Origin: a virus
Taxonomy: Duplodnaviria > Caudoviricetes
Length of the DNA: 59,387 nt
Virus record (IMG/VR): IMGVR_UViG_3300027969_000005
Coordinates: 1 to 59,387 of that record
Reading direction: 5' to 3' (one strand)
Part shown: piece after piece, positions 15,853 through 18,970 of the stretch
Position numbering within the stretch: the stretch's first letter is position 1
How the letters are laid out: every line of letters starts with the position of its first letter
The notes under the pieces: generated by a model
Told to the model about the DNA's origin: nothing
What the model saw: the letters and a program-made list of their open reading frames with translations, nothing else
Databases searched by the model: none
Program-made: the position numbers and the translations under genes

Positions 15853-18489
15853 CTATGCGGGGTAAAGCGGCTGCAATTGGCCGCCGGGATAGGTCTTCAT
15901 GGACTCGATCTCTTCAATTCGCTCAGCGCCACGGGTCAAAAGCCCAATATCACGCATGTGGCGCAAGGCCTGAGACACCGTATCGACCATATCGTCGTGC
16001 TTTCCCTTAGGGAATTGTCCGACTTGGGTGATTAAGGCTTCTGCCCACGACCGATCTGGCGCATAGATCATGCCCTCGGCAAACAGATGCTGGATCGAAT
16101 AGAGGCGAGACAGCTTATCTTGGCTCTTTGGGTCGTGAAGCTGCACGCCAAACCGCTCGTGGTTATACAGACGCCGGATTTCCTGCGCCACAGAGTGTCC
16201 GGCGGCCTTGTTCTCGATTAAAAGCACGTCAACCTTGAGCGACCGGCATGTCTTGGCGACCTTTTCGACCAGTTCGTGGATCTCCAAACGTGCCTCCCAA
16301 GCATGCATCAGCATGACCTTGGGCGCGGCGTCCATATAGGACCGGTCGATATACATTGGCCGACCATCAGCATCCAAAATGCGCGAGGCCTGCGCCGTCG
16401 TTTCAGACGTGAAGACGCCCCAGATGCTCAGGGCGCTAGGGTCATTCATTGTCTTGGTCGTATAGGCGGTGTCCAAAGACGCCACGATGTAATCCATCGG
16501 CGGGAAGGACGCATCCTCCCACAATTGCCACCAGTCTCGCTTGATGACACCGCCCCCGGCGGGCTCAGGACGCTGCTGTAGCTGACCGGCGGCGGAGAAC
16601 GGACCCAAGGCACGCTCAAGGCGCGACACCTCTGCATCGCCAAACCGCTCGGGCCAGAGCAGTTCGCCCGGTTCGCTTCGTGGATCCTTCCAGCCGATAC
16701 CAGATACAAATGACCGCTCAGGTTCATAACGCATGGGAAGCATCAGGTGCGTCCAGTCATCGCGCTCCTTCTCAAGGATGTGGCCGGTCAGGTCGTCTTC
16801 GGCCAGACGCTGCTGGATGATCACGAACGCGCCCGTCTTGGGATCGTTGAGACGGGTGCTCATGGTGCCGTCCCACCACTCCTTGGTGGTCTCGATCGTG
16901 GCCTCAGAGAAGGCCTCAGACGCAGCGTTGGGGTCATCGACGATTATGCAATTGTGGACGAGAACTCCATCAGCAAAGAAGTTGCTAAATTCCTCAACTT
17001 GTATGTCATAGACCCACTCCTCTCTTGTGCCCAAAGATGCAACAGAGGAGACACCGTCAAAGTTCCAACGTGATGTTTGGCATGACAAGGCTGGCAAAGA
17101 GTAATCAGGTTTTCCGGCTCGTTGTTTTGAGGGTTGTGATCCACATGATGGACATGAAGAATTGATCTTGCATGAGATCCCCGTGGAAGCTTCATCTCCG
17201 CCTCCCCGCAAGCTGTGCATTCGTGATCGTCCCGCTCCAAAACAACCCGCCTCATTAATTTGTAAAGATTCGAGTATGGGGAATTGTTCTTGAAGTTTGA
17301 GTTCAATCTCCCCCGCATTCTGTCCGAATGATCCGCATCCGCACAAGCTGGAGAACAATATATTGTCCATATCTTGCCGCTCGGCATAAGTTTCATTCCG
17401 AAAATCGTTCCACAGCGGGGGCAAGATCGTTTCTTTTGATTTTTCCACCGCCATATTGCCTTGCAAGCATCCGAACAACATTTCGAGTGTCGGGTCTTTC
17501 TTGGCTTTTCGCAAACGACGCATTGAGCCGTATTTTTTGTCGCATGATGTGCTGAGCAACATATTTTCGAGCAATAGGCATCCCGACTGTTTTGCTTGAG
17601 CGCCTTCCTTGCTTCGTATAGTTGTTTTTCCGTCCGCTTCCCGCAATTGTCGCAAATCAAATGAAGAACTATTGTCCTTCCCGTTTTCGACAATAAGCCC
17701 GTCTCCTCTCCCCATTTCAGAAGCAAAGATATATCCCCACCCCGGTGAGAAGATTGGATGGTCTCCAGTACAGATAAATCGATTTCCCGAAAATGAATCC
17801 AATTGATAGAGGTCATTTGACTTCCTACGGTGTGTGGCTAAAATTTTAGAACTTACCACCTTACCCCGTGAATGATCAAACGCCAATATAATGTCACCGA
17901 TTTTTAGAGATTCGATTGGAACATGGCCCGCAGGCGTTGAAACCATCGTTCCCGCCACAAAACAGCTTCCGCCCTCACCGGTCACCGCCGCGCCAACGGA
18001 CGTGATCAGGCGCTCACCGCCCTTGTCGTTGGAGAAACGGCTTTTGGTGTTTTGGTCGCTGTTGAGCGTAAACCGATCACCCCACATGGACTGATACCAC
18101 GGGCTCTCGATCAGGCGTCGGCACTTGACACTGTCTCGCAAGGTCAACTGCTGGGCATAGGACGCATGCAGGAACTGCACGCCCGGCCCAGAAGTGGGGC
18201 CGCGATAGCTTTGCGCCCATGTCCATGCTGGAAAAGCCACCGAAGTAATCGATGACTTTCCAAAACGCGGAGGCACATTAATTATTAGACGTCTAATTTC
18301 CCCATCAACAACGGCTTGCAGATGTTCCGCAATTGCCTCGATGGGCCATCCGTCAGTCCATGGTGAGCTATCGATGTAGCGCCACGCATGGGTCAAAAAC
18401 AGATAGAGGCTGTCTTCGTATTCCGCCCGATCCAAGTCGAGCAATTGTCTTTTGGCATCGACCGTCAGACCACCAAGATCAACCTTCAT
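15853..18489 (-). CDS. terL: Terminase large subunit, intein-containing precursor (about 878 aa; about 540 aa spliced)
   Basis: Walker A INVPPRFGKS; Walker B (C)IIVDD directly after the intein; nuclease motifs SLDTA, IENKAAG, HDDMVD; start codon approximate. Confidence 0.93.
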   Translation of the reverse strand: MKVDLGGLTVDAKRQLLDLDRAEYEDSLYLFLTHAWRYIDSSPWTDGWPIEAIAEHLQAVVDGEIRRLIINVPPRFGKSSITSVAFPAWTWAQSYRGPTSGPGVQFLHASYAQQLTLRDSVKCRRLIESPWYQSMWGDRFTLNSDQNTKSRFSNDKGGERLITSVGAAVTGEGGSCFVAGTMVSTPAGHVPIESLKIGDIILAFDHSRGKVVSSKILATHRRKSNDLYQLDSFSGNRFICTGDHPIFSPGWGYIFASEMGRGDGLIVENGKDNSSSFDLRQLREADGKTTIRSKEGAQAKQSGCLLLENMLLSTSCDKKYGSMRRLRKAKKDPTLEMLFGCLQGNMAVEKSKETILPPLWNDFRNETYAERQDMDNILFSSLCGCGSFGQNAGEIELKLQEQFPILESLQINEAGCFGAGRSRMHSLRGGGDEASTGISCKINSSCPSCGSQPSKQRAGKPDYSLPALSCQTSRWNFDGVSSVASLGTREEWVYDIQVEEFSNFFADGVLVHNCIIVDDPNAASEAFSEATIETTKEWWDGTMSTRLNDPKTGAFVIIQQRLAEDDLTGHILEKERDDWTHLMLPMRYEPERSFVSGIGWKDPRSEPGELLWPERFGDAEVSRLERALGPFSAAGQLQQRPEPAGGGVIKRDWWQLWEDASFPPMDYIVASLDTAYTTKTMNDPSALSIWGVFTSETTAQASRILDADGRPMYIDRSYMDAAPKVMLMHAWEARLEIHELVEKVAKTCRSLKVDVLLIENKAAGHSVAQEIRRLYNHERFGVQLHDPKSQDKLSRLYSIQHLFAEGMIYAPDRSWAEALITQVGQFPKGKHDDMVDTVSQALRHMRDIGLLTRGAERIEEIESMKTYPGGQLQPLYPA
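16944..17693 (-). CDS. Zinc-finger HNH homing endonuclease overprinted in the +1 frame inside the TerL intein (249 aa from TTG 17693; frame open from ATG 17816)
   Basis: CDNC, YCSKIC, CVVC, CSDAC, CPRC, YCSPAC repeats; VLERDDHECTACG...LHVHHVDHNPQNNEPENLITLCQPCHAKHH; AGGAG at 17707-17703, 9 nt before TTG. Confidence 0.88.
   Translation of the reverse strand: MSKTGRTIVLHLICDNCGKRTEKQLYEARKALKQNSRDAYCSKICCSAHHATKNTAQCVVCEKPRKTRHSKCCSDACKAIWRWKNQKKRSCPRCGTIFGMKLMPSGKIWTIYCSPACADADHSDRMRGRLNSNFKNNSPYSNLYKLMRRVVLERDDHECTACGEAEMKLPRGSHARSILHVHHVDHNPQNNEPENLITLCQPCHAKHHVGTLTVSPLLHLWAQERSGSMTYKLRNLATSLLMEFSSTIA
16951..17964 (-). mobile_element. Intein (338 aa) in TerL, inserted just before Walker B
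   Basis: Block A CFVAGTMVST, block B CTGDHPIF, block F VYDIQVEEFSNFFADG, block G VLVHN, +1 Cys; exteins TGEGGS|CIIVDDP. Confidence 0.93.
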
Positions 18490-18970
18490 TTGCCTCAAAT
18501 TCCTCTTCATCGGAGGTGTCTTTGTCGTATTGACCCTGCTTGTCGATCGCCTTTTCAAGGATCTCACGCAGTGAATCGCGCTGATCTTGGGTCAAATCGC
18601 GGCTATCGACCGTCTGCGTGCTGGTCTCGCTTTGGATCGGATTGCCGTCTGGGCCGGTAAGCTCAGTGCGGTTTGTCTCACGCCAGCCAAGCTGCGTCTT
18701 TGCCCAGAACATGGCTGCAGGGGCGCAGCTTTTGTGGTTGATGTCCGTGGCAATCTGGAAAAGGGTCGAGACGACCTTAAAGTTCTTCTCGCCCTTCGCC
18801 TTCTTAAGCTCAGCGGGATAGTATTTGACCAGCGTATCGACATGCAAACCCATCATGTCGGCCACCTGAAGGTTGGTCATACCCATGCCAGCAGCCTCGG
18901 CCACTCGCTCGCGGCTTTCGTCTGTGGCAACATGGGCTGGTCGTCCGCGTCGGCGTGGTGCGTCGGTCAT
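18479..18970 (-). CDS. terS: Terminase small subunit
   Basis: GRP.H, HTH, AAMFWAKTQLGWRE and ELTG.DG.PI motifs; directly upstream of TerL. Confidence 0.85.
   Translation of the reverse strand: MTDAPRRRGRPAHVATDESRERVAEAAGMGMTNLQVADMMGLHVDTLVKYYPAELKKAKGEKNFKVVSTLFQIATDINHKSCAPAAMFWAKTQLGWRETNRTELTGPDGNPIQSETSTQTVDSRDLTQDQRDSLREILEKAIDKQGQYDKDTSDEEEFEANEG

Follow-up and report, generated by a model that had tools for sequence, protein, structure and literature searches.

A terL intein with a putative HNH homing endonuclease gene nested in its +1 frame in a freshwater phage

The large terminase gene (terL) of a freshwater phage, known from a complete virus record with direct terminal repeats (IMG/VR record IMGVR_UViG_3300027969_000005, 59,387 bp, the whole of which is referred to below as the window), contains a class-1 intein that is likely to be mobile, with its probable homing endonuclease, an HNH enzyme, encoded not in the intein polypeptide but as a separate gene nested in the +1 frame of the same strand. 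The evidence comes from the two reading frames themselves, from relatives that share the arrangement, from the pattern of constraint on the two frames, and from closely related terL alleles that have no intein.

The intein and the overlapping reading frame

The terL open reading frame (ORF) is uninterrupted over 904 codons (Table 1), and its product matches the Pfam families Intein_splicing (PF14890) at residues 224-539 (45.3 bits; cutoff 35.8) and Terminase_6C at residues 767-869, with N-terminal Hint matches at residues 195-298, PT-HINT among them at 31.0 bits (cutoff 27.7). The insert runs from CFVAG to VLVHN and is followed by C-IIVDDP, so that a Walker-B-like motif, IIVDDP, stands directly after it. 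All of the splicing residues are present (C1 of CFVAG, T66 and H69 of TGDH, N338 of the terminal VHN, and C+1), and C1, T66, H69 and N338 are invariant across 40 intein sequences. In a model of the TerL-frame intein predicted with AF2, residues 1-95 and 300-338 form two beta lobes with a per-residue model confidence (pLDDT) of 92-98, and the approximately 204 residues between the lobes score 38-60. In the TerL frame Pfam gives no match to a nuclease domain, and over intein residues 96-299 none to a domain of any kind. The insert has a GC content of about 46%, against about 56% in its flanks. A first-pass annotation, made from the sequence and its ORF translations, had described a TerL frame that stays open through a 338-residue intein before Walker B and that lacks a nuclease motif; the ORF scan and Pfam agree with it on both points.

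The nested HNH ORF starts 751 nt downstream of the start of the TerL ORF, and is therefore in the +1 frame. Its product matches phrog_1271, 'HNH endonuclease', in the PHROG collection (E 8.5e-24) and, marginally, Pfam family PF01844 at residues 213-249 (21.6 bits; cutoff 21.4); there is no Pfam match to Endonuclease_7 at E values up to 0.1, only HNH, HNH_3 and HNH_2 being listed. The profile searches proposed in the first-pass annotation have thus matched HNH in the one frame, if marginally in Pfam, and Hint in the other, and the six Cys pairs and HNH core that it had placed at 17816-16944 are borne out. All 12 cysteines of the zinc-ribbon array are invariant or nearly so among 13 HNH sequences, and in 48 sequences C55, C58, C82, C132, C135, C154 and C158, together with the H163 that follows them, are still invariant or nearly so. 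In the catalytic core C200, H223, H224, N236, H245 and H249 are invariant in the 48 sequences, with C203, N232, C241 and C244 conserved in at least 90%. A second alignment of the family, A2, omits L001 and L002, the broken or mini forms L014, L032 and L038, and the duplicates L020 and L043. Words of the LRQLR type in the TerL-frame translation can be read directly as shadows of the CxxC codons of the +1 frame, as the first-pass annotation had remarked; the stretch atTTGCGACAATTGCGGg, which encodes CDNCG in the +1 frame, is an example.

The HNH product is predicted to fold over its full length (mean pLDDT 89.7), and its tail is predicted to form helices at residues 256-268 and 272-286 (pLDDT 96-98). 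A Foldseek search of the PDB returns ScoMcrA, Cap5 and EcoKMcrA at probabilities of 0.97-1.0, with E values of at least 4e-3 and TM-scores of about 0.2, which are low because only the HNH core of some 80-110 residues aligns; profile matches to the HNH domains of McrA, IscB and group II maturases are similarly weak and limited to the core (E 2e-3 to 8e-3). The top match of the model in a library of viral structures (BFVD) is an HNH protein of a Brucella phage (E 1.7e-13). The product of the +1 ORF is thus likely to be a zinc-ribbon HNH nuclease of the free-standing type and not an intein domain.

The arrangement recurs widely. We examined 47 of 82 loci, L001-L047, comprising 45 IMG/VR contigs, Brucella phage Tb and Gordonia phage Clown; L048-L082, which match the short HNH core only, are outside this count. 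When all frames of these related loci are considered, as the first-pass annotation had advised, an HNH ORF is nested at +1 inside an ORF of 1.9-4.1 kb in 44 of the 47, and the third frame is closed in all 44. Counts of insertion site and codon context given below refer to these 44 nested loci and the window, L037, L045 and L047 being left out because they have no spanning ORF (L045 is a free-standing HNH gene). The intein occupies the identical point in terL, directly before C-hhhDDP, in 45/45, despite widely differing N-exteins. Homologues of the nuclease are also numerous outside this set: among 313 metagenomic candidates, 7 of the 12 matches with E values of 1e-3 or below are full length at 49-62% identity, and among the 50%-identity representatives of approximately 15 billion proteins there are 172 matches at E values of 1e-10 or below and 36 at 1e-30 or below. 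A tblastn search of phage records with the HNH protein finds 62 records, including those of 41 Brucella phages and two of Gordonia phage Clown; the match lies under the terminase gene in both the Brucella phages and Clown, and the +1 offset is confirmed in Tb and Clown. Free-standing HNH relatives are annotated in haloarchaeal viruses and plasmids.

Table 1. Coordinates of the terL intein, the nested HNH ORF and associated signals in the window
Feature	Position	Strand	Basis
Large terminase (terL) ORF, continuous across the intein, 904 aa	15853..18567	-	ORF scan; Terminase_6C; phrog_38 terminase large subunit, E 1.8e-81
N-extein, ending ...AAVTGEGGS	17965..18567	-	sequence and locus comparison
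Class-1 intein, 338 aa: Cys1, TGDH (block B), VYDIQVE...NFFADGVLVHN, then Cys+1	16951..17964	-	PF14890, 45.3 bits; conserved site
N-terminal splicing domain, intein residues 1-95	17680..17964	-	pLDDT ~97, all-beta
'Filler' in the TerL frame (residues 96-299 of the intein): HNH gene read through without stops, disorder predicted	17068..17679	-	pLDDT 38-60; codon phase; stop avoidance
C-terminal splicing domain, intein residues 300-338, blocks F and G	16951..17067	-	pLDDT 92-97
C-extein, starting C-IIVDDPNAA (Walker-B-like motif)	15853..16950	-	sequence and locus comparison
Putative HNH homing-endonuclease ORF, +1 frame, 290 aa	16944..17816	-	ORF scan; Pfam; PHROG; homologues; fold prediction
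Cys-pair zinc-ribbon array, HNH residues 55-158: C55/C58, C82/C86, C99/C102, C114/C118, C132/C135, C154/C158	17343..17654	-	conservation; weak MYM-type zinc finger match
HNH catalytic core, residues 195-250: C200/C203, H223-H224, N232, N236, C241/C244, H245, H249	17067..17234	-	Pfam; conservation; structure and profile matches
First overlap with constraint in both frames: HNH residues 1-46, intein residues 50-95	17679..17816	-	phase analysis
Second overlap with constraint in both frames: HNH residues 251-290, blocks F and G	16947..17066	-	all codon positions 0.32-0.39
Best-supported initiation site: AGGAAG (17826-17821), 6 nt from AGGA to start, ATG (17816-17814); +1-frame TAG 8 codons upstream (17840-17838)	17814..17826	-	column conservation; Shine-Dalgarno sequence; codon phase
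Alternative or second start: AGGAG (17707-17703), 9 nt, TTG (17693-17691)	17691..17707	-	TTG in 5/8 close relatives
Sigma-70-like promoter match just upstream of the HNH start: TTCACG, 18-nt spacer, TAAAAT, 9/12; weak lead	17843..17872	-	motif scan

Constraint on the two frames and signals for expression

The open TerL frame was compared with what the nuclease alone would leave, by holding the HNH protein sequence and its codon set fixed and shuffling synonymous codons (n=2000). The shuffled sequences contain on average 17.7 stops in the TerL frame, where none is observed, and 0/2000 leave that frame open; an open frame by chance is rejected on this basis. The third frame is close to expectation, with 16 stops against 14.5. 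A stop in the TerL frame needs an HNH codon ending in T before a codon starting with AA, AG or GA, and in the window codons of these three kinds follow a T-ending codon in 0 of 76 cases, compared with 80 of 219 in other contexts; over the 45 loci the figures are 0/3267 and 2268/10404. The cost of the overlap to the nuclease is therefore almost nil, because synonymous codon choice removes every case in which a stop would be made, and the avoidance of T-ending codons before AA, AG and GA codons provides a simple and checkable rule by which an overlap of 290 codons can be kept.

The frame that is constrained changes along the overlap (Table 2). Eight sequences, those of the window and L003-L009, were aligned codon by codon and pairwise differences were scored for each codon position, with positions 2, 3 and 1 of TerL codons corresponding to positions 1, 2 and 3 of HNH codons. 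In the core it is the third position of the HNH codons that varies most, at 0.61 compared with 0.41 and 0.36 for positions 1 and 2, and variability at TerL third positions drops from 0.62 to 0.35 at ATG 17816 (permutation p < 5e-5). The pattern is that of purifying selection on the HNH frame in the core, with the TerL frame ruling the first 48 codons of the intein. From the difference between core and ends it follows that some 204 codons are nuclease-coding with a read-through linker in the other frame, and that about 85 are constrained in both. The first-pass annotation had proposed that the +1 frame dictates the sequence and that the TerL frame is kept as stop-free filler, and codon phase, stop avoidance and fold predictions all support this; its filler of about 200 residues stands, and its estimate of about 250 dual-coding codons gives way to the smaller figure. 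The analysis thereby provides a map of which frame is constrained where along the overlap.

Table 2. Pairwise differences by codon position and amino acid identity along the overlap (codons of the +1 frame, numbered from the intein start)
Codons	Region	TerL-pos2 (HNH-pos1)	TerL-pos3 (HNH-pos2)	TerL-pos1 (HNH-pos3)	Identity, TerL frame	Identity, HNH frame
1-48	Upstream of ATG 17816	0.26	0.62	0.36	0.57	0.26
50-95	HNH residues 1-46 over the N-splicing domain	0.32	0.35	0.46	0.46	0.47
96-299	HNH core over the filler	0.41	0.36	0.61	0.27	0.49
300-338	HNH tail over blocks F and G	0.32	0.38	0.39	0.47	0.48

The best-supported start of the HNH gene is ATG 17816, which we rank above the TTG at 17693 that the first-pass annotation had favoured. 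The column of this ATG holds ATG or GTG in six of eight close relatives and in the other two an ATG occurs three codons further on; each of the eight has a +1-frame stop 8-14 codons upstream of the column; and the constraint on TerL third positions starts exactly here. A Shine-Dalgarno sequence stands before the column as AGGA 6 nt upstream in the window and L003, and as AGGAG 5 nt upstream in L005, and similar sequences precede the starts of many family members (AGGAGG in L010 and L037; AGGAG in L005, L011 and L027). The AGGAG ahead of TTG 17693 is present as described, a TTG is found there in five of the eight relatives, and the homologue P0005 is called from this position; the TTG may serve as a second start. 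The stop codon of the HNH gene, TAA at 16946-16944, is formed by codons of the C-extein, 7 nt inside it, and the stop falls exactly 7 nt past the intein in 19/45 loci and somewhere in the extein in 28/45. Three sigma-70-like sites were found in the region compared with 1.5 expected from shuffles, which is too weak for an internal promoter to be claimed. We infer that the HNH gene is translated independently. In the neighbourhood of these genes a portal-sized ORF lies after terL and a possible small-terminase ORF before it.

Empty alleles, decay and probable mobility

Among 80 loci with close relatives of the window TerL, 73 could be used, the other seven having no junction. The intein is absent at the site in 72 of the 73, where the sequence reads ...TGEGGS|IIVVDDP, and the sole close relative that has it, L120, has an intact HNH gene. 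The most informative empty allele is that of L086, which is 96% identical to the window in the C-extein. Differences between the two concentrate in the 9 nt that flank the junction on either side (16942-16959 and 17956-17973), with 4/9 and 6/9 positions changed, and include the change from I to C that gives the +1 nucleophile and the ATA-ATC codons in which the nuclease stop is created; this looks like a short tract of co-conversion or of target immunity. The sporadic distribution of the intein fits homing.

Sequencing runs bear on both the integrity of the element and its absence. Contigs of run X1 are identical to the window, of which X1 is possibly the source. Those of run X2, from another study, cover 16933-18400 at approximately 95% identity without gaps, which settles the check for indels that the first-pass annotation had suggested. 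In run X4 a contig connects 16941 with 17972 through 16 other letters, a net loss of 1014 nt that is exactly the intein; its junction is of the L086 type and it comes from a related phage, and X4 also contains a piece identical to part of the intein. Gaps in the contig cover of runs X3 and X4 were given no weight.

Stages of decay are also seen. The open stretch of the HNH frame is shorter than the tblastn match in 9/44 loci, mostly by a few codons at the end. In L014 and L032 the HNH frame is truly interrupted and the TerL frame open, and L038 is a mini-intein of 197 residues in which most of the nuclease is deleted and the TerL frame is again open; on sequence comparison these three appear to be decay stages of the same element. 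Relatives with a broken +1 frame and an open TerL frame, which the first-pass annotation had listed as potentially damaging to its proposal, thus exist, and are among the 44 of 47 loci counted as nested at +1.

A different form is suggested by L037 (positions 1-2241 of a 5.3-kb contig), in which a gene of the HNH family lies between two apparent terL pieces, the three parts being in three frames. The N-extein and intein N-lobe end near 590, the HNH ORF occupies 359-1177 with AGGAGG upstream of its start, and the C-lobe and C-extein follow from an ATG at 1048; stops occur throughout the canonical read-through frame. The locus may be a natural split intein in a 'fractured' terL, or a dead gene. 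In four Streptomyces plasmid records of 85-93 kb (H53-H56) a member of the HNH family at 36-40% identity, annotated as 'HNH endonuclease signature motif containing protein', overlaps a 'hypothetical protein', and these are probably instances of the nested layout in linear plasmid-prophages. Four close TerL relatives (L108, L114, L116 and L127) are empty at the Walker-B site and have a different intein of about 340 residues at the P-loop (...IPPRxGK|...THN|S), with LAGLIDADG-like motifs in frame and no long overlapping ORF. Inteins of two kinds have therefore entered a single TerL lineage, each at a site of its own.

Interpretation and comparison with known systems

If the terL intein of the window is mobile and the nested HNH gene its homing endonuclease, ribosomes translating terL would read the nuclease gene in frame 0 and produce a disordered linker of about 204 residues between the splicing lobes. 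The intein would then splice itself out and restore TerL, as the full set of splicing residues and the need for splicing in a gene essential for packaging suggest. The HNH protein would be made separately by internal initiation, most likely from ATG 17816 behind its AGGA and possibly also from TTG 17693, and would cut intein-less terL at the conserved GEGGS|IIVVDDP, whereupon repair would copy the whole unit of intein and nuclease into the cut allele. Only the ends of the HNH ORF, some 46 and 40 codons, would overlap functional splicing blocks and be constrained in both frames. Such an element most likely originated when a free-standing HNH gene invaded a mini-intein.

Several observations weigh against this interpretation. 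The HNH score in Pfam is barely above its cutoff and the PDB matches are weak, both in E value and in TM-score. The high pLDDT and conservation of the overlapped HNH ends may come from the splicing blocks in the other frame. The phase alignment was built on the translation of the +1 frame and could favour that frame, although it nonetheless reports a signal dominated by TerL at both ends of the intein. A clear Shine-Dalgarno sequence precedes the conserved ATG/GTG in only 3/8 close relatives, 2/8 have no start codon in that column, and start positions differ among the more distant family members. The nuclease does decay, as the broken HNH frames beside an intact TerL frame in L014, L032 and L038 show, and the activity of the window copy cannot be assumed.

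A more far-reaching proposal is that the nuclease ends are obligately dual-coded with the splicing blocks, residues 1-46 of the HNH protein with block B and the last part of the N-lobe, and its residues 251-290 with blocks F and G, the C-extein supplying the stop codon, and that the family includes a split derivative in L037. We offer this tentatively, and find it somewhat easier to doubt than to accept. Were the ends obligately dual-coded, intein and nuclease would be a single inseparable selfish unit in which the nuclease could be neither shifted into frame nor cleanly lost; and with a split L037 the TerL Walker-B inteins would constitute a natural series in which endonuclease invasion turns contiguous inteins into split ones.

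The strongest competitor of a mobile intein with a working nested nuclease is that the +1 HNH gene is a recently inactivated relic, neither expressed nor active, with the intein persisting only because terL needs to be spliced. The decayed relatives, two with an interrupted HNH frame and one reduced to a mini-intein, all with the TerL frame open, lend this some weight. The window ORF is, however, full length and retains all of the invariant catalytic and zinc residues, the phase of substitutions among the closest relatives is that of purifying selection in the HNH frame, and the absence of the intein from 72 of 73 close TerL relatives argues for a recent gain; we therefore think a relic unlikely.

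Programmed +1 ribosomal frameshifting out of the terL/intein frame, giving a fusion of N-extein, N-intein and HNH, would account for a nuclease that is always on the same strand, at an offset fixed at +1 in 44/44 nested loci, and with an N-terminus overlapping the intein N-domain. Common descent explains the fixed offset, since the frame could change only if two indels arose at once, and the +1 stops just upstream of the conserved ATG/GTG in all eight close relatives leave only a tiny window in which a shift could occur. Together with the Shine-Dalgarno-like sequences ahead of the starts in many family members, this makes frameshifting very improbable.

A shade less credible again is an HNH that serves the terminase as an accessory nuclease, in the manner of the HK97-type packaging HNH, and not homing. 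Its location inside terL is suggestive, and a functional link with the terminase has been a matter of speculation for the brucellaphage gene, in the available text of that report (PMC4422536). Intein and nested HNH are, however, absent from terL in 72/73 close relatives, a count confined to terL itself, with no search of neighbouring genes or for a separate HNH elsewhere; the HNH invariably accompanies the intein, at a single site, in TerL backgrounds that are unrelated; and the changes that separate the window from a nearly identical empty allele are concentrated at the junction. A frameshift introduced in sequencing or assembly, displacing a truly in-frame HNH domain, has nothing found in its favour. 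It is refuted by the occurrence of this layout in 44 further loci as well as in the genomes of phage isolates, by gap-free contigs from an independent run, and by the shuffle test, since between two compensating indels frame 0 would be expected to contain many stops (mean 17.7 compared with 0 observed), so that its probability is negligible.

The supposition in the first-pass annotation that the architecture was undescribed has to be withdrawn, since on the available text of three reports (PMC4422536; 10.1101/2025.01.02.630785; 10.64898/2026.09.14.751524) it is already in print. The window element is a member of a brucellaphage-type family, for which both the layout and the combination of HNH and terL have been published. 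In Brucella phage Tb/Pr (NC_019446.1) GenBank lists F354_gp07, terL 'intein present', overlapped by F354_gp08, 'putative HNH endonuclease' (Tevdoradze et al., 2015; PMC4422536), and the available text of that paper contains no analysis of selection, filler or homing for the element. The Tb HNH is homologous to that of the window (31.6% identity, E 2e-20), in the same host gene, at the same insertion point before C-(V/I)IIDDP and at the same +1 offset. It differs in being 228 residues long with a GTG start, in lacking the first Cys pair and in not overlapping the N-terminal splicing domain, and the phage lineage and TerL differ as well. In Tb a GcrA-like gene adjoins the terminase genes. As the architecture is already in print in Brucella phages, what is added here is detail and not discovery.

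Inteins with an endonuclease in a separate frame have been described more generally by Gosselin et al. (2025; bioRxiv 10.1101/2025.01.02.630785), who, in the text available, propose invasion by a free-standing homing endonuclease. Their inteins resemble that of the window in having a same-strand endonuclease in a separate frame between the splicing blocks, an in-frame middle without a recognisable fold and, often, terL as host; they differ in that the endonuclease is endonuclease VII-like and in 'frame 3' (+2), compared with a zinc-ribbon HNH at +1. The window has the complete same-strand ORF between blocks, the open extein and intein frame and the foldless middle of such inteins, together with homology to Tb; with no Endonuclease_7 match and an offset of +1 rather than +2, it is therefore of this kind without belonging to the endonuclease VII 'frame 3' subtype. 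In the text available Gordonia phage Clown is mentioned by these authors only as the largest class-1 intein, and in our analysis it carries an HNH of the window type at +1.

Overlapping frames are also reported outside this family, again as far as the available texts go. In a mycobacteriophage DNA methylase gene the 'hidden' HNH of ShiLan is, like that of the window, out of frame in an insert that is stop-free in the host-gene frame, and its mode of translation is an open question (Arsenault et al., 2025; PMC11855218); splicing domains cannot be detected in it and its insert is believed to stay in the protein, whereas the window HNH is flanked by a complete class-1 intein. A cyanobacterial dnaX intein has an out-of-frame LAGLIDADG endonuclease, an idea credited to Gorbalenya (1998), and shares with the window an overlapping-frame endonuclease under purifying selection, a relaxed intein frame and the co-existence of intein-plus and intein-free alleles (Phillips et al., bioRxiv 10.64898/2026.09.14.751524); it differs in its cellular host gene, its LAGLIDADG enzyme and its +2 offset. 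A Walker-B intein in TerL1-e of mycobacteriophage Gaia spliced in a reporter assay in the available text of Kelley et al. (2016; PMC5050341). A Gaia HNH protein is a weak structural match to the window HNH, at rank 14, and no Gaia terL match is among the matches listed by tblastn with the window or Clown HNH.

Fractured genes, in which split inteins have a free-standing endonuclease gene between their halves (Dassa et al., 2009; PMC2677866), also place an endonuclease gene of free-standing type between N- and C-lobes, and L037 looks like exactly this form on the description available; the window intein is instead contiguous, and its host gene is not in two ORFs with one intein half each, a single 904-residue ORF covering both lobes. 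Gene callers forbid long overlaps on the same strand, so that for elements such as that of the window a 'degenerate' intein is reported and the nuclease is missed. The element fits a model in which splicing comes first and the endonuclease invades later, and among its relatives there are contiguous and decayed inteins, a mini-intein and one that is apparently split, which can be compared. With canonical in-frame HNH inteins it would have in common that intein and HNH form a mobile unit; in those the nuclease is part of the intein polypeptide, whereas here the in-frame product of the same stretch is a predicted disordered linker.

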